Shown here: positions 2,875 through 17,640 of the stretch, in pieces | Numbering within the stretch: position 1 is the stretch's first letter | How the letters are laid out: every line of letters starts with the position of its first letter | Origin: a virus | Taxonomy: Duplodnaviria > Heunggongvirae > Uroviricota > Caudoviricetes | Length of the DNA stretch: 17,695 nt | IMG/VR virus record: IMGVR_UViG_2778261667_000007 | Coordinates: 1 to 17,695 of that record | Reading direction: 5' to 3' (one strand) | Notes under the pieces: model-generated | Seen by the model: only the letters and a program-made list of their open reading frames with translations | The model's database searches: none | What the model was told of the DNA's origin: nothing | Translations under genes and position numbers: made by a program

Positions 2875-2900
2875 CGTTGAAAAATTAAATTTCTAACATA
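2875..2900 (-). promoter_or_regulatory. Recurrent motif copy 1 (minus orientation): TATGTTAGAAATTTAATTTTTCAA
   Basis: Reverse complement of 2875-2900 reads tatgttagaaatttaatttttcaacg, near-identical to the motif at 16362-16384 (tatgttagaaaactaattttccaa). Confidence 0.4.
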
Positions 2901-2917
2901 GTGTATTTATATACACT
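2900..2917. promoter_or_regulatory. Perfect 7-bp inverted repeat AGTGTAT-ttat-ATACACT, candidate dimeric regulator site; three GATC sites follow at 2921-2949
   Basis: Read directly; a related half-site (GTGTATAAATCCACTG) lies at 3011-3026 on the other side of the terminator, and GTGTAT recurs at 17641-17646. Confidence 0.3.
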
Positions 2918-2984: not shown

Positions 2985-3010
2985 AAAAGCCGCTGAGAAG
3001 CGGCTTTTTG
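2985..3010 (+). terminator. Rho-independent terminator (bidirectional-looking)
   Basis: Stem gccgct (2989-2994) / agcggc (2999-3004), loop gaga, then TTTTT (3005-3009); the A-run upstream (2985-2988) gives a U-tract on the opposite strand too. Confidence 0.8.
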
Positions 3011-3070
3011 GGTGTATAAATCCACTGCCATAGATTTATACGGTAGATAGATTTTTCACGGAACTATCTG

Positions 3071-4033
3071 ATGAGTATTTTAAATTCAGTTCCAGTAACT
3101 TTCAACACTTCTGAGTATAAAAACAACACTGAATACCACAAAAAAATCAAAGGTCATCAGTTGAGTTTTTTTGCTCGTCATAGCGGTTTTCTTTCCCCTT
3201 CACATAGCGCCATTATTGCCGAGTTCGCCAACCTGGCAGGGGCTACCGATGAATACATGATCCGTCGCTCATATGCTGATATGTCCGAGATTACAGGACG
3301 CAGTATTTCTACTGTGCGCCGGGCATTTACCGAAGCGACGAAGTGCGGAATGCTTGTTAAGCAGCATCAGGTAGCGAATAACAATGCTCAGGTGTGTAAC
3401 GTGTACCGGTTTACAACACAATTTCTCCACTTCATTCATATTGCAATGGAGATAGGGGGTAAGCAGGGCATCAAATTTGCCAACGCCACAAAACTGGTTA
3501 AGCAGTTGATTTCAAAAGTTCGTTATTTTTTTGAAACTGGGAACCCCCTGTTCAAATTGAACAAGCCCCCCCATGTTCAAAATGAACAGCCAATAGAAAA
3601 TAAGAGTCACTCTATAGCCAAAAGAAGAGAAAGATCATGCGCGGTTCAGCCAAAGGCTTCACCAGCAGATAGTTCTCAAGCGGATAATGGGGGGCTGGAT
3701 AAAAAAACAGTAATCAGGGAAGAACATACCAACCACTGCCTGGCGGCGGCAAAAGCGAGAGCTGCAAAGCGTCGTTCAGACGAGGGGCACGCAAAACGGC
3801 AGGCTCTGTATCGTACCGCTGAAAAGCTGGCAAAAAAATTTGCATGGATACGTAGTGCCGCTACCGCAGTGAATAAGCCTAAACAATCCAGTGCCCTGGA
3901 TTTCTCAATGGATTATTCTGGCTCCCAGGGATGTGCAACCATTGGTGAAGCCTTTGACCTGATGAAACAGCGTGGCTATCGGTCTGAATTTGACCGTGAG
4001 GATTGGTCAATACCTGCGGGATTTAGGGGGTGA
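3071..4033 (+). CDS. HTH DNA-binding protein (320 aa), candidate replication initiator or regulator
   Basis: Helix-turn-helix-like segment ITGRSISTVRRAFTEATKCGMLV; basic, low-complexity C-terminal half. The coding region contains two palindromes separated by poly-C (3549-3586). Weak SD at the start. Confidence 0.5.
   Translation: MSILNSVPVTFNTSEYKNNTEYHKKIKGHQLSFFARHSGFLSPSHSAIIAEFANLAGATDEYMIRRSYADMSEITGRSISTVRRAFTEATKCGMLVKQHQVANNNAQVCNVYRFTTQFLHFIHIAMEIGGKQGIKFANATKLVKQLISKVRYFFETGNPLFKLNKPPHVQNEQPIENKSHSIAKRRERSCAVQPKASPADSSQADNGGLDKKTVIREEHTNHCLAAAKARAAKRRSDEGHAKRQALYRTAEKLAKKFAWIRSAATAVNKPKQSSALDFSMDYSGSQGCATIGEAFDLMKQRGYRSEFDREDWSIPAGFRG
3549..3586. repeat. Two adjacent palindromes inside the 320-aa CDS: TGTTCAA-a-TTGAACA (3549-3563) and TGTTCA-aaa-TGAACA (3574-3588), each preceded by a C-run
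   Basis: Read directly from sequence ccccctgttcaaattgaacaagcccccccatgttcaaaatgaacag. Confidence 0.85.
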
Positions 4034-4086: not shown

Positions 4087-4116
4087 GTGTTAGAAAATTA
4101 ATTTGCCGTTTCTAAA
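4087..4116 (+). promoter_or_regulatory. Recurrent motif copy 2: GTGTTAGAAAATTAATTT, with inverted partner TTTCTAA (7-bp arms TTAGAAA / TTTCTAA)
   Basis: Read directly; lies about 60 bp upstream of the predicted immI promoter. Candidate operator for a global repressor. Confidence 0.4.
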
Positions 4117-4171
4117 TCAGAATGTATGATCTGCATCATCGATTAAAGTCATCCATTGCTGAAATTTTTAG

Positions 4172-4200
4172 TTGATCTTCCATGTTTTCAGGCTTATATT
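4172..4200 (+). promoter_or_regulatory. Sigma70-type promoter (TTGATC - 17 bp - TATATT) for the c4-like / icd / ant transcript
   Basis: -35 TTGATC 4172-4177, 17-bp spacer, -10 TATATT 4195-4200; predicted TSS near 4207. Confidence 0.5.
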
Positions 4201-4299
4201 CATGCCGTCGTAGCAAATTCTGCGACCGGGTTTGACAGCCTGAATACTTACGCGGACAACCGCACATTTCCGATATTGCGGTATTTTTGTGTCCGTAAA

Positions 4300-4390
4300 A
4301 CCACGTTACGCCCGAATTATGGTGGGGCGTGATGGGGAGGCTTCGGCCTGCTGGTTTCGTAAGTGCCAGTCTGTCAACCCTGTCACGTCC
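4300..4390 (+). ncRNA. c4-like antisense regulatory RNA (immI-type); ends approximate
   Basis: Element b' CGTAAGT (4358-4364) is the exact complement of ACTTACG in the upstream leader (4246-4252) and at the icd-like SD (4429-4435); a' CTGTCAA (4371-4377) is the exact complement of TTGACAG at 4232-4238 and 4401-4407. This a1b1 - b'a' - a2b2 layout matches the P1/P7 immI architecture. Flanking hairpins: acgccc/gggcgt (4308-4330) and a UUCG tetraloop stem (4338-4349). Confidence 0.5.
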
Positions 4391-4446
4391 TGCCACCTGT
4401 TTGACAGCGGGTCGCAGGTTGTTTATCAACTTACGAGGCCGTAACT

Positions 4447-4671
4447 ATGGTTAATGCCAATCCTTGCTCACGTCCAGAATTCATCTGGCGTTTCCACTCT
4501 CTGCAAAAACACTGCGATCATTTCGCAATTGCCGCAACCGAAAAAGAAGCCCGTTCTCTGATCCCTGATCAACATGGCGTCCTGACTGGCCGTTTCTCTA
4601 CTTCCTCACAACCAAACACTAATCCCTGGTATCGCAATATTACCAATCCCGGCATTGCGGAGGCACACTGA
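4447..4671 (+). CDS. Icd-like small protein (74 aa), first ORF of the immI-type operon
   Basis: ATG 4447 with SD gagg (4434-4437) lying inside the b2 target element; stop TGA overlaps the next gene's ATG (TGATG at 4669-4673), indicating translational coupling as in P1 icd-ant. Confidence 0.5.
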   Translation: MVNANPCSRPEFIWRFHSLQKHCDHFAIAATEKEARSLIPDQHGVLTGRFSTSSQPNTNPWYRNITNPGIAEAH

Positions 4672-5378
4672 TGGAAATCTGCATTCTTGAAAAGCCATCA
4701 ATGACTAGCATTGAGATCGCGGAGCTGGTGGGAAGTCGTCACTCTGATGTTAAACGCAGCATCGAAAGACTTGTTGCTAAAGGAATTATCCAACATACGC
4801 CATTGGCTACAGTTGAGAATAATCAATCACTTAGCCCTAATAAATACACAAAAGCCTATTTCTTCGAAGGCGAACAAGGCAAACGCGATAGCATCATTGT
4901 CGTCGCGCAGCTCTCTCCGGAATTCACCGCCCGGCTGGTGGACCGCTGGCGCGAACTGGAAGAACAAGCACGCCAGCCGTTGACCGAAATAGAGATGATC
5001 GCCGCAATGGCTGCAAATGCAGTTCAGCAGCAAAAGCGGCTTCATGCTGTTGAGTCAAAGGTTAGCCAGGTCGCTGAAACCGTCGAGAAAATAAAGAAAG
5101 GCAATATTCCGGAAGGTTACATTGGCTACCGCCAGTTGGCGGCGAAATGCGGCCTGACTGAAGCCAAATGCCGCAACCTTGTCAACGCTTACCGGATCCC
5201 CACCGATACACATGAGTTTTTAACTCCCGAGGGGGTATTGTCGCGTCGTTCCATCGTGGCCTTATCTCCCTTCATGAATGCTTTTAACCGGATGATGTCG
5301 GAGGCTGAACACCGAGGAAAACGCTGGTATCACCCCAAAATGGGGCAATTCCAGGTGATCGGTTGGGGAGGTGAGTGA
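4671..5378 (+). CDS. Rha-family phage regulatory protein / putative antirepressor (235 aa)
   Basis: N-terminus MTSIEIAELVGSRHSDVKRSIERL matches the Phage_pRha signature (TS..IAE..GkRH.dV.R.I..L). Start overlaps the stop of the upstream small ORF. Confidence 0.6.
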   Translation: MEICILEKPSMTSIEIAELVGSRHSDVKRSIERLVAKGIIQHTPLATVENNQSLSPNKYTKAYFFEGEQGKRDSIIVVAQLSPEFTARLVDRWRELEEQARQPLTEIEMIAAMAANAVQQQKRLHAVESKVSQVAETVEKIKKGNIPEGYIGYRQLAAKCGLTEAKCRNLVNAYRIPTDTHEFLTPEGVLSRRSIVALSPFMNAFNRMMSEAEHRGKRWYHPKMGQFQVIGWGGE

Positions 5379-6104: not shown

Positions 6105-6330
6105 GTCATGGGTTAATAAGTAGGCAAACTATGGGGAGTATGTGATTTTGACGGTAGTATCGTCCCCGTGACTACTCCCCGCTCTGTCTGGCGAGGCTTC
6201 CCACTTCTTAGGCAGCAACCGTCTGTATGACGGATTTACGCTGGCCTCCATGGACAGAAACGACGAGTCCCGCCGCCTGTAGTTCCAGTATTCCTTTTTG
6301 CCGGATATTGAGCGCCGCATTGATGTCGCG
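6105..6330 (-). ncRNA. Candidate omega-RNA (reRNA) guide scaffold of TnpB, overlapping the tnpB 3' end and IS right end; extent approximate
   Basis: Established architecture of IS200/IS605 elements (omega-RNA derived from the tnpB 3' end and RE) plus the multi-stem structure seen at 6134-6181. Not confirmed by covariance model. Confidence 0.3.
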
Positions 6331-7383
6331 ATCATGTTCAATACTGCATTCCGGGCATCGCCAGATGCGTTTATGAAGCGGCATTTCCGGCATTTTGTAA
6401 CCACAACAATGGCACGTTTTCGAACTGGCAAACCACTGGTCGAGTTTTACCAGGTGAACGCCTTTTTCCGCTGCCTTGTACTCCAGCTTTGTGATGAAGC
6501 TATGCCAGCCTGCATCACCTATCGCTCTTGCCAGATTGTGGTTTTTCATCATGTTGGCTGTTTTCAGCGTCTCGACAATTACCGCTTGGTTTTCGTCAAC
6601 AATTGCACGAGAGAGCTTGTGTTGAAAATCAGCACGGGCATTAGCCACCCGTTCGTGTAACGCTGCCAGACGGATTCTGGCCTTTTTACGATTCGCGCTT
6701 CCCTTTTGCTTGCGGGATAAGGCTTTTTGTTTGCGTCGCAAATTACGGCTGGCATTGATGAGATGGCGGGGATTTGCAATTTTTACCCCATCAGACTTGA
6801 TGGCAAAGTGCGATAATCCCATATCTATCCCCGTCACGCGGGATATCATGGAAGGTCTGGCTGGCGTTTCCATGCCATCATCGCAGAGTAGCGATGCATA
6901 ATATTTCCCCGTCGCAGAACGAGTGATAGTGATGCTTTTCAGCTTTCCATGAAGTTCACGATGAAGGCGTGCCTCAATCGGGGAAAGTTTGGGGATTTTG
7001 ATGGCATTATCCAGCACCTTAACTCCGACACAGTGATAGCTGGATTGCCAGCCGTTCTTTCTCTTGAAAGTCGGAAACCGGGCTTTCAGCTTCGGATTAA
7101 AAAAGTTGGAAAATGCCACATCAAGATTAATTACCGCCTGTTGCAATGCCATTGAATCAAACTCTTTGAGCCAGGCATACCTGCGGGACTTTTTGGCCAC
7201 AGACAACAACGGTTTCAGATCGTTACGCGGACTTAAATTTACTCCGTGTCTCTGGTAAGCATGTTTTTTGATGTGAAGAGCTTTATTGTACGCAAAGCGT
7301 ACCGCGCCGAACTGGGCATTGAGATACTTTGCCTGTTCCGGTGTTGAATAGATGCGTACTTTTGTTGCTCTTAACATAGTCAC
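6208..7383 (-). CDS. tnpB: IS200/IS605-family TnpB (RNA-guided RuvC-like nuclease), 391 aa
   Basis: RuvC-I (TGIDMGLSHFA), RuvC-II (VIVETLK), zinc finger (CHCCGY ... CPECS) and RuvC-III (HDRDINAALNI) in canonical order. Start is GTG at 7383 or ATG two codons later (7377). Confidence 0.9.
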   Translation of the reverse strand: MTMLRATKVRIYSTPEQAKYLNAQFGAVRFAYNKALHIKKHAYQRHGVNLSPRNDLKPLLSVAKKSRRYAWLKEFDSMALQQAVINLDVAFSNFFNPKLKARFPTFKRKNGWQSSYHCVGVKVLDNAIKIPKLSPIEARLHRELHGKLKSITITRSATGKYYASLLCDDGMETPARPSMISRVTGIDMGLSHFAIKSDGVKIANPRHLINASRNLRRKQKALSRKQKGSANRKKARIRLAALHERVANARADFQHKLSRAIVDENQAVIVETLKTANMMKNHNLARAIGDAGWHSFITKLEYKAAEKGVHLVKLDQWFASSKTCHCCGYKMPEMPLHKRIWRCPECSIEHDRDINAALNIRQKGILELQAAGLVVSVHGGQRKSVIQTVAA

Positions 7384-7571: not shown

Positions 7572-10500
7572 TTGGACAAACTACTTCATTCAATCAGTGA
7601 AGCCTCCAGCTTAGGCGAACTGATTGAGATTGTTAGTCGGTTGCATAAATTACGTGCTGTTGCGACCTTTGGTGTCAGGAAAGCCGATGGCGTCAGTATT
7701 CAGAAAACACGCCGGGCAGCAAACAACGCCGCAGTAAATCTTCTTAATTCCCTTCCTCCCGGTTTCGATGGGGCGAAATTAACTGACGAACAACGTCAGA
7801 TTCTTGCCGGGTATACCGGTGAAGGCGGCCTGACAGATGGTGAGGGCAGCCAATACGAATACTACACGCCACAGTTTATGGCTGAAGGTATATGGGATCT
7901 GTTTGCTGACTACGGTATTGATGGCGGGCACGTACTGGAACCATCAGCGGGCACAGGTATTTTCCAGGAGACAAAACGGCAGGGCATGATAATGACCAGC
8001 GCCGAACTGTCTCCGATTTCCGGTCGAATAAACCAGCTTTTGCACCCGGAAGACGATGTGAATATCGGGGCGTTTGAGGCGCTGGCGGCGAAAGACGCAA
8101 TGTATGATCACGCTGTTGGTAACGTACCGTTTGGTGAAGGGCGTTCCGGTGTCGCCGGGCTTGATCCGGCATATGCAAACGAGAAGAACGTTGGCAATTA
8201 CTTTGTGTTGCGCACGATCGACAAGGTTAAGCCTGGTGGACTAATTGTATTGGTGGTGCCGAATGGCATGACCGATGGTACGAAATACAAAAAATTGCGC
8301 GATAAAGTCAGCCGTAAAGCGGAATTTTTGGGCGCACATCGTATGCCTTCTGGTACGTTCAGCGAATCTGGTACAGATACCGTGGTGGACGTATGGGTAT
8401 TGCGTAAACACCCGGAAACCTTCCTGGAGATGATCCCCGACACGGATGATGCAATGCTCAAATCGGCAAACGTCCTTTGGGATACCTTCCTCAAAGGGAA
8501 ATGGTTTACAACCGAAGGGAAGCGATTTGTTTACGGCGACATGGAACGCACCAGCTTCCGCAATACCCTGGTGGTGAAAAAGGACGGTCGTGTATCCAAT
8601 GAGTCGATGAAAACCGCGTTATCACGCCGCTTTGAAAGCCGTATTAATTGGGATTTGCTCGGAGTAACTACCCAGGCATGGCAGGGCGCAAAAGTAGGGG
8701 ATAAGCGTCTTGTAGGCGGTATCTGGCATGAGTTTGATGGCCTGAAATGGGTTAAGGACACGACAACCGAATCCTCCGCGCTTGATGTAAGTCGATATGG
8801 TGTTTCGACGTTTGGCGATCTGCAGATCGCGTTCCAGTCAACAAACGGGATTCTGGCTTTGTCATGGGACCAGATATCGGCGATCGCGTCCGACTATCCA
8901 TCGGTTGTCAGTGATGAAGTGGCAGCAATGATTCGCTTTGCTGGCAAACAGCGAGAAAAAGACAGGGAGCGCGTTATGCGCGGTGCGTTGATAGGGCAGT
9001 TGATCAACAAGGCACTTGATTTGCGTAACCTGGGGGTGAACGTTGATGACAAACTGGCAGATGCATCCCGCCTGGCGGCAGCAGAAGTTGCGAAGTATGG
9101 ACCACCGCACGCGATTAAGCTGAATGGGCTTGCAGAAGCTGGAGCTAAAAACTGGATGACGTTCACTGGCAACGTGAAACAGGATGGTTCCACTTCTGAC
9201 CTTCTGGCAGGGCGACTTGATGTAACGGATGGTGCTGCCGGTATTGACTTTACACGTCCTGAACAAGTGATAGCACATCTTTTCAGTGATGTAGCCCTTA
9301 ATCCTATAACGCTGGGCGACTTTCGTGAGGCGTTTGCTGGTGAACTGCCAGAGGACGACGACGCGGCCCTTGAATACCTGGCGAAATTTGATGATATCGC
9401 TATTGATGGGTATGGCTGCCTGCTGCTGATGGACCGCGCCACCAGCGGCGATATTGCAACCAAAACAGCATTGCTGATGGGCTGGCGTGATGCGTCAACA
9501 GGTGAGCAGAAATCGAACTTTGAGCGTCAGTTGGCGAAAATCGAAGAGAAACGCATTTTCACGCCACTAAATAAAGTCACCGTTAATCTGAATGCCCGCT
9601 GGCTGGATCGCCGTTTGATAAAAGAGTTCCTGGCAGAGCAGGGCTATGACGAGTTTAAGTACACTGAACCTGATCTGAAGGTCGTCGATGGCATTCTGGT
9701 ATCTCCGGACGATTACGAAGGTAAGGACGGTGTATTTACCGGCTATCAGCTACGAACCGTAAACGGCAAAAACGGGAATGAGTTCAAGAAGGCCAACAAT
9801 AAAGACGGCTTCCTGAACCAGTTAGAAAACTACCTGAACGGCGTCAAACCGCGCGGGCAGAACGCTAACGAGTACCTGGATAAGATTGCTCAACTTGAAG
9901 TTAGCTTTAACGACTGGTTACGCACCCACCCGCAGGCTGATCAGATAGCCCGTGACTATAACGACGCATTCAATGGCTTCATTCCGTTCACGCACTCTAA
10001 CGCACCGCTTGGCCTGGAAGGGATTAGTGGAAAGCGCATTCCTCTGACTTATCAGAATGAAGAAGTTCGGCGCTTGTCAGAAGATGGGCGCGGCATCATG
10101 GGATTTGGTACCGGGCTGGGTAAAACCACGACCGCGCTTGCGCTTGAGGCGTATAACTTCGAAACAGGTCGCACTAAACGCACGTGTATTGTTGTTCCGA
10201 AGGCGGTTTATCAGAACTGGTATCACGAGGCACAGAGCTTCTACAGTGCTGATGCCTTCGCCAATATGATGTTTATCGGTCTGGATGAAGTTCGTGATGA
10301 AGACGGCAATATTCTGACCGCGCCGGTGCTTGATGAAAATGGCGAACCCCGCCTGGACAGTAACGGGCAGCCTCTTACCCGCAATGTGGTGAAAGAATCC
10401 GCCAGCGCAGTTATCGTTCAGCGCATGAACATGATCCCGTCGTCAAATTGGCGAACGGTCATCATGACGAAAGAGCAATTCGCGTCTATCCCGCTACGAG

Positions 10501-13500
10501 AAGAAACCATTGAGGAAAACTCACAGCAAGCTGTCTTTAATGCTGTGGAAATGGGGCGTCTTGACCTGGCGTCCGGTAAACACCGTGACGCGCAGAAGAA
10601 GAACAAGATTAAGGATCAGGCAGCAAATACCGGTACAACGAAGAAGCAGAATATCCCGTACTTTGAGGATATGAACTTCGATAGCGTGATTGCCGACGAG
10701 GGGCATAACTACCGAAACTCCTTTAATGCCGGGCGTGAAGCGGGACAACTGGCATATTTGCCTAACCCGGCAGTATCCAAGATGGCCCGCGACATGGCTG
10801 TAAAAGCTGCGTACATGATGAAACGCAACAACGGGCGCGGTGTAGTCATGCTGACGGCAACTCCGCTGGTGAACAGTCCGATTGATGCCTTCAACATGCT
10901 GTCTACTGTCATTCCGCAGGAAGAGTGGATGCGCATGGGCATCATTACGCCTGATGATTTCGTTCGTGTGTTTGGCAAAACAGCAACAGTTCAGGTTCAG
11001 AAAATTTCCGGTGAGGTGGAAGAGAAGCAGGGGCTGGTGGGCTTCCAGAACCTGGACGGTCTGCGTGGTATTTTCCATCGCTGGACTACTCTGAAGAATG
11101 CTGCGGACGTCGGGGCGACGGTTAAAATCCCCGACATCATCGAGAACACCTTGCAGATCCCGATGACAGGGGAGCAGGAGACTGCTTATGAAGAACTTCG
11201 TAAGCGTGCTCAGGAGTTAAGTCGCAATGATGAGCTGACAGTCGATGAAAACGGGCATATCACTAACGACAAACCGGATGATTTCATCTTCTCCATCATC
11301 CGTGACATGGATAAGGTTGCTATAGACCCGGATCTGTATGCCAGTGCGATTACATTCCAGTTCCCCGTTGAGCTTGCAGACCAGGTAAAAGCTATTGCTG
11401 ATGCCTTGCCAAAAGTAGCTGGCGGTAAAGTGGCAGATGATGCAGACGAGGTCGAAGAAGATGGCGCTGGTGGGCTGGTCAGTACGCGTACCAGCAAGGT
11501 AGTGAAGACCACCTTTAGTGAACATCCGGCGCATGTTGAAATACGCGCCAGCATTGAACTGGAAACTGAAATACTGAAGGCCATTGCGGCTGCCGGTATT
11601 GATATGCAGCAGGTATCGCACCCCATCCCGCCGAAGTATGCCGCGCTGATCGAAAATCTTCGTGAAGGTCTGAAGAACGGTAAGCAGATCGTCTTTATTG
11701 ATGAAAAAGCCCAGCACCAGAAGCTGCGCCGTATTATCGCCAGTGCACTGCAAATGCCGGAGCAGGAGATAGGCATTATCAATGCGACGACCGTTAGCCA
11801 GGCTGGTGGCATCAAGCTGAAGAAGGTGAATAAGCCGACTGAACCTACTCTGAATAAAAACGGTGAATACAAAGAAGGGGCATGGGAAACCTACTACAGC
11901 AAACTTGCCCAATATGAGGATTATCTCTCAGCTAAAAATGATGCTGGCCTTGAGGGTATGGAAGGCATTGCCGCCGACTATAACGAAGGTCGCACGCGCA
12001 TCATTATCTGTAACAAGAAGGCTGAAGTAGGTATTAACCTGCATATCGGGACAACCGATATCCACCACCTGACACTACCCTGGACACCAGCCAGTATCGA
12101 CCAACGAAATGGGCGCGGTGCGCGCGTAGGTTCACCGCAAGAGAAGGTCAATGTTCACTACTACTGTGGCAAAGGCACATTTGATGATTTCCGCCTGGAT
12201 ACGCTGAAACGCAAGAAAGACTGGATCAAGATGGTGATGACCTCCGACATGTCAGAGATCGCCAATGGTGATGCGGATGATGCAGATGAACGCGCCATTA
12301 TGCTGGCAGCAAATCCGGAAGAGCGCCGCGCAATCATGGCCCGTCAGGCGCAAGAGCGTGAAGAACGCCTTAAACTGAAAGCGCAGCGCGAGGCCGGTAA
12401 TGCTCTTGATAACTACCTGAAAGCGGCTAATGCTGCCGGGAAAGATATCGGCATGATGGAGACAGAGCTGAAAAGCGCGATGGAGCAGGTAGAGCATTAC
12501 CAGCGCAATCTTGACGACCTGATAAAAGCGGGGACGAACAGGAACGGGCAAAAATATGTTCTAGAACAGTTGCGAGACTACAGAAAACGCGCGCGGGAGC
12601 TGCGGTTTGCTATCACCAGAGCAAAAGACGCTGATACCGTTATGAAACGCTCTCGCGGTGATCTGGAACGAGCCATTAAAGCCGGTATTCTGGAGCTTGA
12701 TGCCGATGTATTACAAAACCCACAGGAATATGTGCGAACTGAGAAAAATATCTTGTTGCACAAGGGCAGCCATTATCGAGCGATCATCGATGAGAATCAC
12801 AACACAACAGCAATTGTTCGTGTGACAGACATTGATGCGGAAAGAGGCGGATGTACTTGCCGCATATCCTGGCTGGATGTGGCTAGTCGTTACTCTCGCT
12901 CCCCCGGGACAGCATTGTATTTACCCTTTAACTTGATAATTGAAGCTGTATCTTTTGAAGAAGGAGTTGCTGAATCGCGTGAAACAGCCGCACGCGGTGT
13001 TCAGAGTCACCAATTATCAACAACACTTACTCGCGCTCAGTTCTATGATGCCATTCGAAATGGAGTCATGAAGGTTACCACCGGCAAGCCTGGTTTGGCA
13101 TGGGGCGGTGGGCAAGCGATTAAATACTGGGCCTATCGCACCGACGATGGTCAGATCGCTCTGTCAACGGCCTATGATGGCGTGATAGGCCAAAAAATCG
13201 GGCGAGCATCGGATATAGCACCTGAACGATGGATATATCCAGATGGCAACGATGAGGCGCTGAAGCGTGAAGTGGCAAAAATACAAGCCAGTGATAACCC
13301 GCTGAATATCGTGGACGGTGAGGGATTCCTCCAGGCATTGTATGGATATGATTACATCCAGGGAATGCAGGCATGGGGAGCGCAAGCCACAATGGATGAT
13401 GTTACCCAGGAATTTGAAAACTGGATGGCAGGGCGTGGTCTTTCTGGTCGTTCGCTTAACAAAGTCACGTCTGAAGATATTCTTAGCCTGTTCCGAAAAC

Positions 13501-14411
13501 CGTCCGGAGAAGGTCTGGAATTATTCTGGAAGACCGTGGTGGCATACCGTTTATTCCGGGGCAGGATGAAAGCCTTTAGCAACACTGATGACATTGAACG
13601 GATGTTTAATCAGGTGAAGGTCGCGAAAATTACGGCGAAAATCGAGAAGACACGAGCTGCGCTGGTGGCCTGGCGCGATGCATTGTTTGAGCAATATAAA
13701 TCACTCAGTGATGCAGATGGATGGGCTGCACTGGAACAGTTGGCGAATAATGGGGTAGATGGAGCGAAACTCGCCATTGTTCAGGCTGATAACCCTCTGG
13801 AATCACCGGCAGCACAATGGATTAAGGTGGGGGCTGTCATCAATGCATTTGATGAGAAACACATTAGTAAAGACGATTTTGCTGATGCTGTTTCTATTAA
13901 TCGCCTGGTAGAAATGGCTACCCGCCGCGCCCGTGAGTTGAAAGACGGTGACTATGTGAATGAGTTGCCGGATGCGCTCAAATCAGCAACGTGGCAAGAC
14001 TATGTATCGCTGAAAAACGGCGGTGCTACCGAATCAGAGATCGCTAAAAGACTTGAGCAGGTTGAAAGCAAAAGAGAAGAGCAGGCGGCAGTGGCTGACG
14101 CCAGAGCTGATGAAGCGGCGAATGATGACTATATCATTGTGGTTAATGATAAGCCGATTCGCGCTAAGGCGCGTGTTCGCGGGCGCTGGTGGAGCGTCAG
14201 CGAGGACGTCGGTGCGGTTTATCTCATTGCCGACCAACCTGGTTCCTCGACAATACGGAACGCCAAAGACGCGATTAAGAAGATTGGCGGGCGTTTCTGG
14301 AATTTTGAAGTAAACCCGGTTGCTGATGTGAACTTTGACCGTCCGGCATGGATGGTATCTACGCGTTACTCGGTAGATGAACTGCGTAAAATAATCGCCG
14401 ATGCGGCCTAA
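7572..14411 (+). CDS. Giant N6-adenine methyltransferase / SF2 helicase fusion (2279 aa), DarB-like antirestriction protein
   Basis: MTase motif I EPSAGTGIF (nt ~7938-7964) and motif IV NVPFGEG (~8121-8141); helicase Walker A GFGTGLGKTT (~10101-10130), DExH VIADEGHNY (~10692-10706), motif III TATP, motif VI QRNGRGARVG (~12103-12132); coiled coil and a ~600-aa C-terminal extension. TTG start at 7572 with SD agaggggg 8 nt upstream. Size and domain order resemble phage P1 DarB (recalled, not searched). Confidence 0.7.
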   Translation: MDKLLHSISEASSLGELIEIVSRLHKLRAVATFGVRKADGVSIQKTRRAANNAAVNLLNSLPPGFDGAKLTDEQRQILAGYTGEGGLTDGEGSQYEYYTPQFMAEGIWDLFADYGIDGGHVLEPSAGTGIFQETKRQGMIMTSAELSPISGRINQLLHPEDDVNIGAFEALAAKDAMYDHAVGNVPFGEGRSGVAGLDPAYANEKNVGNYFVLRTIDKVKPGGLIVLVVPNGMTDGTKYKKLRDKVSRKAEFLGAHRMPSGTFSESGTDTVVDVWVLRKHPETFLEMIPDTDDAMLKSANVLWDTFLKGKWFTTEGKRFVYGDMERTSFRNTLVVKKDGRVSNESMKTALSRRFESRINWDLLGVTTQAWQGAKVGDKRLVGGIWHEFDGLKWVKDTTTESSALDVSRYGVSTFGDLQIAFQSTNGILALSWDQISAIASDYPSVVSDEVAAMIRFAGKQREKDRERVMRGALIGQLINKALDLRNLGVNVDDKLADASRLAAAEVAKYGPPHAIKLNGLAEAGAKNWMTFTGNVKQDGSTSDLLAGRLDVTDGAAGIDFTRPEQVIAHLFSDVALNPITLGDFREAFAGELPEDDDAALEYLAKFDDIAIDGYGCLLLMDRATSGDIATKTALLMGWRDASTGEQKSNFERQLAKIEEKRIFTPLNKVTVNLNARWLDRRLIKEFLAEQGYDEFKYTEPDLKVVDGILVSPDDYEGKDGVFTGYQLRTVNGKNGNEFKKANNKDGFLNQLENYLNGVKPRGQNANEYLDKIAQLEVSFNDWLRTHPQADQIARDYNDAFNGFIPFTHSNAPLGLEGISGKRIPLTYQNEEVRRLSEDGRGIMGFGTGLGKTTTALALEAYNFETGRTKRTCIVVPKAVYQNWYHEAQSFYSADAFANMMFIGLDEVRDEDGNILTAPVLDENGEPRLDSNGQPLTRNVVKESASAVIVQRMNMIPSSNWRTVIMTKEQFASIPLREETIEENSQQAVFNAVEMGRLDLASGKHRDAQKKNKIKDQAANTGTTKKQNIPYFEDMNFDSVIADEGHNYRNSFNAGREAGQLAYLPNPAVSKMARDMAVKAAYMMKRNNGRGVVMLTATPLVNSPIDAFNMLSTVIPQEEWMRMGIITPDDFVRVFGKTATVQVQKISGEVEEKQGLVGFQNLDGLRGIFHRWTTLKNAADVGATVKIPDIIENTLQIPMTGEQETAYEELRKRAQELSRNDELTVDENGHITNDKPDDFIFSIIRDMDKVAIDPDLYASAITFQFPVELADQVKAIADALPKVAGGKVADDADEVEEDGAGGLVSTRTSKVVKTTFSEHPAHVEIRASIELETEILKAIAAAGIDMQQVSHPIPPKYAALIENLREGLKNGKQIVFIDEKAQHQKLRRIIASALQMPEQEIGIINATTVSQAGGIKLKKVNKPTEPTLNKNGEYKEGAWETYYSKLAQYEDYLSAKNDAGLEGMEGIAADYNEGRTRIIICNKKAEVGINLHIGTTDIHHLTLPWTPASIDQRNGRGARVGSPQEKVNVHYYCGKGTFDDFRLDTLKRKKDWIKMVMTSDMSEIANGDADDADERAIMLAANPEERRAIMARQAQEREERLKLKAQREAGNALDNYLKAANAAGKDIGMMETELKSAMEQVEHYQRNLDDLIKAGTNRNGQKYVLEQLRDYRKRARELRFAITRAKDADTVMKRSRGDLERAIKAGILELDADVLQNPQEYVRTEKNILLHKGSHYRAIIDENHNTTAIVRVTDIDAERGGCTCRISWLDVASRYSRSPGTALYLPFNLIIEAVSFEEGVAESRETAARGVQSHQLSTTLTRAQFYDAIRNGVMKVTTGKPGLAWGGGQAIKYWAYRTDDGQIALSTAYDGVIGQKIGRASDIAPERWIYPDGNDEALKREVAKIQASDNPLNIVDGEGFLQALYGYDYIQGMQAWGAQATMDDVTQEFENWMAGRGLSGRSLNKVTSEDILSLFRKPSGEGLELFWKTVVAYRLFRGRMKAFSNTDDIERMFNQVKVAKITAKIEKTRAALVAWRDALFEQYKSLSDADGWAALEQLANNGVDGAKLAIVQADNPLESPAAQWIKVGAVINAFDEKHISKDDFADAVSINRLVEMATRRARELKDGDYVNELPDALKSATWQDYVSLKNGGATESEIAKRLEQVESKREEQAAVADARADEAANDDYIIVVNDKPIRAKARVRGRWWSVSEDVGAVYLIADQPGSSTIRNAKDAIKKIGGRFWNFEVNPVADVNFDRPAWMVSTRYSVDELRKIIADAA

Positions 14412-16361: not shown

Positions 16362-16394
16362 ATGTTAGAAAACTAATTTTCCAAAATTAACAGG
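16362..16394 (+). promoter_or_regulatory. Recurrent motif copy 3: ATGTTAGAAAACTAATTTTCCAAAATTAACAGG, immediately upstream of the 402-aa gene
   Basis: Contains the perfect palindrome AATTTTCCAAAATT and outer inverted arms TGTTA / TAACA; ends 8 nt before ATG 16402 (SD agga). Confidence 0.45.
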
Positions 16395-17611: not shown

Positions 17612-17640
17612 GTGTTAGAAATCTAATTTTAATTAACAGG
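17612..17640 (+). promoter_or_regulatory. Recurrent motif copy 4: GTGTTAGAAATCTAATTTTAATTAACAGG, downstream of the 402-aa gene and upstream of the next gene beyond the window
   Basis: Read directly; an inverted partial copy (cttaacatag, 17661-17670) lies 20 bp further on. Confidence 0.4.

Follow-up and report, generated by a model that had tools for sequence, protein, structure and literature searches.

The analysed stretch of DNA, hereafter called the window, comprises 17,695 nucleotides of a Caudoviricetes record in IMG/VR (IMGVR_UViG_2778261667_000007). Downstream of its repL gene (3071-4033), and upstream of orf17 and a gene for a CHAP hydrolase, lies a module in which a promoter, a leader, a small antisense RNA named C4 and short target sequences precede an icd-like gene and the gene of a putative anti-repressor. 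By its sequence, the window is related to Escherichia phage D6 (MF356679 / NC_050154), a P1-family plasmid prophage. The likeness to D6 and to the D6-like plasmid pYU39_89 extends to both the sequence of the module and the gene order, which in the window and D6 reads portal, pro, repL, c4, icd, Rha anti-repressor, orf17, CHAP hydrolase and darB. Window and D6 are 97.5% identical over positions 4100-4700 and fully identical from approximately 4146 through the start of icd; an insertion of an IS605-family TnpB element at 6208-7383 is present in the window and absent from D6. The c4 gene and its targets are unannotated in the D6 GenBank record. At full length, the window matches its nearest plasmids in PLSDB, including many from E. 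coli and Salmonella, at approximately 91-94% identity, while the segment 4190-4446 is matched by 587 PLSDB plasmids and reaches at least 99% identity in 28 of them. D6-like plasmids have been reported to carry homologues of c4, icd and the anti-repressor gene as well as a second such region (PMC6799933). The features of the module are listed in Table 1.

Table 1. Features of the c4 module and its flanks, with positions in the window and the basis of each assignment.
Feature	Position	Strand	Basis
Candidate D6-type C1 repressor operator, TGTTAGAAAATTAATTT	4088..4104	+	Recurrence and placement
Upstream promoter-like site, TTGCCG-16-TATGAT	4103..4130	+	Consensus scan
Promoter, TTGATC-17-TATATT	4172..4200	+	Homology to P1c4 (P51b), an annotated sigma-70 promoter of P1
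a1b1 leader motif (RF03163)	4194..4246	+	Fold: two small hairpins, a1 atop the second
a1 target, TTGACAG	4232..4238	+	Complementarity to a'; aligned with P1 misc_binding feature a1
b1 target, ACTTACG(C)	4246..4253	+	Seven bases complement b'; aligned with P1 misc_binding feature b1
Predicted mature C4 antisense RNA, 77 nt	4321..4397	+	Alignment with P1 misc_RNA C4; RF01695 match at 4315-4400; fold
b' recognition element, CGTAAGT	4358..4364	+	Within the 9-nt hairpin loop 4356-4364
a' recognition element, CTGTCAA	4371..4377	+	Exactly the 7-nt unpaired junction between hairpin and closing stem
a2 target, TTGACAG	4401..4407	+	Sequence check; P1 alignment
b2 target, ACTTACGA (4429-4436), with the icd GAGG ribosome-binding site	4429..4438	+	Overlap; P1 alignment
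icd-like gene, 74 aa, cell-division inhibitor homologue	4447..4671	+	P1 Icd match; phrog_1426
Rha-family putative anti-repressor gene, 235 aa	4671..5378	+	Pfam Phage_pRha; phrog_63

The core of the module consists of six short recognition elements. A pair of targets, a1 and b1, lies upstream of the C4 RNA and a second pair, a2 and b2, downstream of it, in the same order and on the same strand, and both pairs are exact complements of the a' and b' elements within C4. A script check of the sequence showed a1 to be the exact complement of a' (as is a2) and all seven bases of b1 (ACTTACG, 4246-4252) to complement b' exactly. The downstream element b2 forms eight Watson-Crick pairs with TCGTAAGT at 4357-4364; beyond these, a search for a longer pairing of b2 and b' yielded only G-U pairs running into the stem of the C4 hairpin, which were not counted. 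The first-pass annotation of this DNA had placed all six elements, and its coordinates proved exact, base for base. It had also held that b2 covers the Shine-Dalgarno sequence of an icd-like reading frame, and b2 does overlap the GAGG ribosome-binding site at 4435-4438, from which the ATG of the Icd homologue is eight bases away. TTGACAG and ACTTACG each occur at two sites on the + strand and at no other position of that strand in the whole 17.7-kb window. In dinucleotide-preserving shuffles of positions 4172-4446, a single central 7-mer complemented both upstream and downstream arose in 199 of 20,000 cases, whereas two adjacent 7-mers each complemented on both sides arose in none of 20,000. 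The six-element layout is real and not a chance pattern.

The RNA at the center of this layout belongs to a known family. A covariance search with the Rfam C4 antisense RNA model (RF01695), which had been named as a check on the first-pass annotation, matched positions 4315-4400 of the + strand over the full length of the model (positions 1-87) with 69.6 bits against a gathering threshold of 45 (E 4.8e-12). Upstream of c4, the target leader family c4-a1b1 (RF03163) likewise scored above its gathering threshold, with 55.9 bits against 46.7 (4194-4246, + strand; E 5.4e-12). The predicted 77-nt C4 RNA is identical to C4 of P1 at 71 of 77 positions, and all six differences fall into the b' loop. 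Since the remaining scaffold and both of its flanks are identical to P1 in the alignment, the cleavage sites appear to be unchanged, and by analogy with P1 the segment 4321-4397 would be processed from the operon transcript into a C4 RNA of approximately 77 nt, with its 5' end generated by RNase P. The 77-mer folds with a minimum free energy of -42.8 kcal/mol (z -5.2), a value reached by none of 200 shuffled sequences. In its predicted fold, two hairpins sit on a long closing stem. The first is of the GCUUCGGC type, and the 9-nt loop of the second holds all of b'; the unpaired junction that follows is a'. Folding had been the other computational check proposed at the outset, and the expected display of b' in a hairpin loop and of a' in an unpaired junction of a stable stem structure was thus obtained. 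The small hairpins predicted to display a1 and a2 have energies that are not significantly better than those of shuffled sequences (z -1.1 and -1.9, respectively).

The comparison with P1 (NC_005856) covers the entire module. The order promoter, a1, b1, c4, a2, b2, icd and anti-repressor gene on one strand is the same, as are the fold of C4, in which the loop displays b' and the junction a', and the a elements (TTGACAG in the targets, CTGTCAA in C4). In P1, b2 likewise lies over the ribosome-binding site of a homologous icd gene, and the promoter P1c4 is homologous as well. The first-pass annotation had compared the arrangement with the c4 layout of P1 and P7, and the annotated a1, b1, C4, a2, b2 and icd start of P1 map exactly onto the positions it had given. 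The two modules differ in the b elements, which read GTTAGT and ACTAAC in P1 versus ACTTAC and GTAAGT in the window, a difference at five of six bases. P7 (AF503408) exhibits the same architecture and a conserved scaffold, with TTAGCAG as its a element and GATTGT as its b element, from which the window differs at two bases in a and at five of six in b. When the window, D6, P1 and P7 are aligned, the scaffold between promoter and icd hardly varies, and most differences fall into the recognition elements. Further differences concern the surroundings: P1 carries sim upstream and kilA-repL downstream of the module, whereas the window has repL upstream and no kilA-repL downstream. The window fails only in such peripheral, P1-specific features, namely homology to Ant1/2, synteny with sim and kilA and the sequence of the P1 operator.

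Transcription of the module likely starts at the promoter at 4172-4200, where the hexamers of the window align with TTGACC and TATAGT in P1; by its sequence and homology, this promoter would drive the entire a1b1-c4-a2b2-icd-ant transcript. No intrinsic terminator was found on the + strand between this promoter and icd, which fits a single transcript. The second promoter-like site, at 4103-4130, occupies the same position as P2c4/P51a of P1 but is not homologous to it in sequence, and the alignment with P1 shows no homology upstream of approximately 4170. The -35 element of this site is overlapped by 2 nt by a 17-mer, TGTTAGAAAWYTAATTT, at 4088-4104, just as the operator Oc4/Op51 overlaps P2c4 in P1. 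The P1 C1 operator consensus ATTGCTCTAATAAATTT is absent from the window within three mismatches, and this different 17-mer stands in its place. Five matches to the 17-mer are present in the window against 0.16 expected, the others being located at 2882-2898 (- strand, upstream of repL), 16363, 16370 and 17613. The D6 genome contains 12 copies, which precede c1, lpa, pmgS, repL, c4, ref and a pdcB/ban-like operon. As the C1 operators of P1 occupy comparable positions, the 17-mer is taken as a candidate D6-type C1 operator, an assignment suggested by its placement.

The first gene behind the targets encodes an evident homologue of Icd. Its product is 62% identical to Icd of P1 over 61 aa (E 1e-27) and matches phrog_1426 (E 3e-39), and the corresponding D6 gene, orf19, is annotated as "similar to P1 gene icd". 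The icd-like reading frame that had been noticed downstream of b2 is thereby identified, and by analogy with P1 it is expected to be the gene whose translation C4 blocks. Its stop codon shares one base with the ATG of the next gene (TGATG, 4669-4673), an arrangement by which translation of the anti-repressor gene may be coupled to that of icd, by analogy with P1.

The identity of this second gene is less straightforward. An antirepressor gene had been anticipated downstream of icd, and a gene of an anti-repressor family overlapping the icd stop is indeed present; its 235-aa product, however, is a Rha-family protein and no homologue of Ant1/Ant2, the anti-repressor of P1 (BLASTP against P1 Ant1, no significant similarity, E 0.2). 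Hence, the anti-repressor has been exchanged and the RNA/icd cassette retained. The missing similarity can also be read differently. The RNA switch might function as in P1 while its output is something other than C1 anti-repression: the Rha protein and Icd could mediate host shut-down, division arrest or the regulation of lytic-gene transcription, and the module would then not determine immunity as it does in P1. In Pfam, the product matches a generic family, "Phage regulatory protein Rha" (Phage_pRha; 34.4 bits, cut-off 29.9), as well as HTH domains, which would suit such a role. D6-like genomes moreover lack the lxc gene of P1, an absence interpreted by the authors as a sign of lysogeny control unlike that of P1 (PMC6799933). 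On the other hand, the best PHROG of the product is phrog_63, "anti-repressor Ant" (E 2.7e-46), the gene sits exactly at the position of ant and overlaps the icd stop, the authors of the D6 annotation regarded it as a putative anti-repressor, and a candidate C1-type operator is located on the operon promoter, as in P1. A function outside anti-repression is hence unlikely, and the gene is treated in the following as a putative anti-repressor gene.

The pairings of C4 with its targets were further evaluated among related loci. A pattern scan of viral contigs in IMG/VR, anchored on the conserved scaffold and leaving the loop (6 nt) free, retrieved 119 loci, 106 of which could be parsed and form the set of close relatives. 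A wider set of 132 loci adds, as outgroups, distant C4 relatives with a 7-nt loop obtained from scans of genome and metagenome contigs. In every one of the 106 close relatives, a1 and a2 are identical and complementary to a', and b1 and b2 are identical and complementary to b'. This strict agreement is maintained across two types of a (TTGACAG and TTAGCAG) and six types of b (GATTGT, ACTTAC, GTTAGT, GTACAT, ACGAAT and ACTTGT), which occur in 11 of the 12 possible combinations. In the wider set, all four targets are exact complements at 127 of 132 loci, with 20 types of b and four types of a, and each b2 found abuts a GAGG or GGAG that is followed by an ATG. The combination of the window, a P1-type a with ACTTAC as b, also occurs in D6 and at three other loci, while ACTTAC is combined with the P7-type a at 15 more. 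Such concerted change, which involves three separate sites each time, provides strong comparative support for the RNA-RNA pairings.

The same pattern bears on the question of whether the region might encode a protein. The old GenBank entry X15639 annotates c4 as a coding sequence, and mechanical reading frames can be drawn through the region of the window (4156-4332, 4289-4444 and 4329-4454 on the + strand; 4136-4429 on the - strand). Variation that is confined to paired recognition elements and concerted at three sites, however, is the signature of RNA-RNA pairing and speaks against c4 encoding a protein; moreover, later records of P1 and P7 annotate c4 as an RNA. The notion that the region is an inactive relic is opposed by the RF01695 score, which lies well above the gathering threshold, and by the identity of the region in the lysogen-forming phage D6. 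A coding gene or a relic can be dismissed almost entirely as an explanation.

A second promoter within the targets had also been pointed out in the first-pass annotation. Its hexamers, TTGACA at 4401-4406 and TATCAA at 4424-4429, are present and separated by a 17-nt spacer, but the promoter scanner did not call the site, since its -10 hexamer has no T at position 6. If active, it could give rise to an icd/ant transcript resistant to C4, and the switch would be bypassed or leaky. The perfect -35 hexamer and the length of the spacer speak for such a promoter, as does the presence of TATCA at all 20 loci of the ACTTAC type. The -35 hexamer, however, is the a2 element itself, and P1 possesses the same a2 with no -10 element at the matching position; the -10 of the window in turn lacks the conserved T at position 6. 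Among the 20 ACTTAC loci, a2 is TTAGCAG, a poor -35, at 15, two of which moreover have an 18-nt spacer, and the TATCA stretch is best regarded as a hitch-hiker of the ACTTAC type of b. A transcript starting approximately 7 nt past the -10 would begin inside the ribosome-binding site and have no usable leader. The internal promoter was judged unsupported for these reasons, and a bypass of the switch by this route is highly improbable.

The Rfam matches, the mapping of the P1 features, the fold, the Icd homologue and the anti-repressor-family gene agree with each other and support the interpretation originally proposed. The module is very probably the immI-type module of a D6-like plasmid prophage, in which c4 RNA would block the translation of the icd/anti-repressor operon. 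The C4 RNA of P1 and P7 is processed by RNase P and has a size of 77 nt, and its action involves Rho-dependent polarity and underlies immunity. In both phages, the transcript is reportedly processed to C4, whose a' and b' elements pair with a2 and b2, whereby the icd site is occluded, the coupled anti-repressor is switched off and C1 remains active. Parts of this mechanism have been restated more recently (PMC12197685, PMC8201110, PMC8546580), including the block of ant expression by c4 RNA that underlies the heteroimmunity of P1 and P7 (PMC12197685, PMC8546580, PMC6906374).

Transferred to the window, this scheme predicts a single transcript of the + strand that would start just after the promoter at 4172-4200 and comprise the a1b1 leader, c4, a2b2, icd and the Rha-family anti-repressor gene. 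The c4 part would be cut out to yield a stable RNA of approximately 77 nt that exposes b' (CGUAAGU) in its 9-nt loop and a' (CUGUCAA) in its 7-nt junction. In trans, C4 would then pair with a2 and b2 on transcripts of the resident prophage or of a superinfecting relative, and icd would remain untranslated because b2 overlaps its ribosome-binding site. The anti-repressor gene, which overlaps the icd stop, would depend on the translation of icd, and untranslated icd RNA would be terminated early, so that no anti-repressor would be made. A C1-type repressor would stay active, and lysogeny and immunity would be maintained, with specificity held in few bases of a' and b'. What the sequence of the window and its relatives establishes is the family membership, the structure, the exact complementarity, the covariation at three sites and the gene content; the maturation of C4, the block of icd translation, its polar effect on the anti-repressor gene and the resulting immunity are carried over by analogy from P1 and P7.

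The recognition elements of the window had been proposed to define a distinct immunity specificity. P1 and P7 are heteroimmune, which has been ascribed to the c4/immI region (PMC6906374, PMC12197685). Among predicted duplexes, the b' loop of the window pairs with its own segment of b2 and ribosome-binding site at -10.1 kcal/mol, compared with -0.7 kcal/mol on b2 of P1 and -1.5 kcal/mol on b2 of P7. The b' loop of P1 on b2 of P7 and that of P7 on b2 of P1 gave -4.7 and -5.0 kcal/mol, respectively. By these predictions, the b element of the window cross-reacts less with P1 or P7 than P1 and P7 do with each other, and is to that extent more orthogonal to them. Pairing between a b element of the ACTTAC type and the b loop of either P1 or P7 should therefore be impossible, and the element should define a separate immI specificity group, which would be common to D6. 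The a element, by comparison, is identical to that of P1 (predicted duplex energy -7.8), and partial cross-repression with P1 is possible. Consequently, the proposal of a distinct specificity holds for b relative to P1 and P7 but not for a, and the specificity is not a new sequence, as the module is identical in the sequenced D6 and at least 99% identical in the 28 PLSDB plasmids mentioned above.

D6 itself carries a second C4 module at approximately 75,180-75,520 of its genome, outside the part represented in the window, with an Rfam C4 score of 76 bits and a preceding match to the isrK family. The recognition sequences of this module are unrelated to those of the first (a, TTGAGAC; b, GCAAAAGG), and its leader matches isrK and not c4-a1b1. 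The general layout, in which targets flank C4 and the downstream targets lie over a ribosome-binding site, is nevertheless the same, both here and in distant C4 relatives from Acinetobacter, Achromobacter and Francisella. The gene that follows the targets in these modules is icd-like or another small gene, and in some of the distant relatives the variable core of the loop measures 7 nt.

These observations allow a broader, more tentative proposal. The pair found in the window, a P1-type a with ACTTAC as b, may represent one cell of a natural combinatorial code of a and b elements, by which P1/D6-like plasmids would be divided into a dozen or more mutually orthogonal RNA immunity groups. The group of the window would then be heteroimmune to P1 as well as to P7, and D6-like genomes would furthermore run two orthogonal C4 switches on two different anti-repressors. 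Given the interleaved order of the elements (a1 b1 ... b' a' a2 ... b2), a new combination can arise only when three separate sites change in concert. The division into orthogonal groups presupposes that both a and b must match for repression, and the proposal as a whole appears plausible, though we would stop just short of favoring it. No systematic description of such an a-by-b matrix was found in the searchable literature, and the D6 genome paper (Gilcrease and Casjens, 2018) may cover it.

The C4/immI module described here is of an already known kind, its sequence is already present in public databases, and the understanding of how C4 works is unchanged; the combinatorial matrix of a and b is the one mildly novel angle. 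The analysis correctly annotates a regulatory RNA of known type, which the nearest reference record, that of D6, leaves without annotation. The natural orthogonal a/b pairs could supply compact orthogonal antisense regulators. For the biology of these elements, the module shows where immunity is controlled in a D6-like plasmid prophage and allows its immI group to be predicted, with a as in P1 and ACTTAC as b. Such a prediction would help to tell which P1/D6-like phage-plasmids may coexist in, or superinfect, the same cell.

Among the close relatives (IMG/VR loci L022-L140), the recognition elements match perfectly across the three sites, and 11 of the 12 combinations of two a types and six b types were observed. 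Given the interleaved order of a and b, such combinations imply that concerted change took place repeatedly and not through one crossover. The recognition sequence is also linked to its surroundings: TTTATCA lies directly 5' of b2 (window 4419-4428) in all loci of b type ACTTAC (20/20), while AAACCT or a similar sequence occupies this place in the other b types. No pairing partner within C4 was found that would account for the linkage of TTTATCA to ACTTAC.

A second C4 RNA was identified by Rfam (76 bits) in Escherichia phage D6, in a part of the genome beyond the window. It differs from the first module in being preceded by an isrK-family leader in place of c4-a1b1, and is followed by a second icd and then by a Rha/KilA anti-repressor gene. 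The a element (TTGAGAC) and the b element (GCAAAAGG) of this second module are orthogonal to their counterparts in the first. Two C4 copies also exist in some distant relatives (metagenome contigs L018, L019, and L020), located on the same strand about 460-490 nt apart; in L018 and L019, an isrK-family match is found ahead of the first copy. Contigs with the labels Acinetobacter baylyi, Francisella, and Achromobacter contain single members of the C4 family whose variable loop core is 7 nt long.

Elsewhere in the window, a TnpB gene is inserted between the CHAP hydrolase gene and darB, a position at which D6 lacks TnpB whereas the nearest PLSDB plasmids carry it. The darB-like ORF and the ulx-like and pmg-like genes that come after it are ordinary content for the P1 family.

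Features of the window and of phage D6 (L142, the D6 sequence stretch)
Feature	Position	Strand	Remarks
D6 second C4 module	L142 29280-29545 (D6 about 75,180-75,445)	- (of L142)	Rfam
IS605-family TnpB gene	window 6208-7383	-	OrfB_IS605, Cas12f1-like TNB and HTH domains
Perfect 10-bp stem AAAAGCCGCT / AGCGGCTTTT, then T run	window 2985-3008		between pro and repL; looks like a terminator
15-nt inverted repeat AGTGTATTTATATAC / GTGTATAAATCCACT	window 2900-2914 / 3012-3026		flanks the terminator-like stem
2279-aa ORF	window 7572-14411	+	counterpart of D6 darB-like anti-restriction gene (D6 orf15)
17-mer site	window 2882-2898	-
17-mer site	window 4088-4104	+
17-mer site	window 16363-16379	+
17-mer site	window 16370-16386	-
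17-mer site	window 17613-17629	+

The 17-mer TGTTAGAAAWYTAATTT recurs in the window with five matches, compared to 0.16 expected, and precedes repL, c4, and the pmgS-like gene. The D6 genome exhibits 12 matches, located ahead of c1, lpa, repL, c4, ref, and others. The sequence differs from the operator consensus of the P1 C1 repressor and probably represents the C1 operator of the D6 type.
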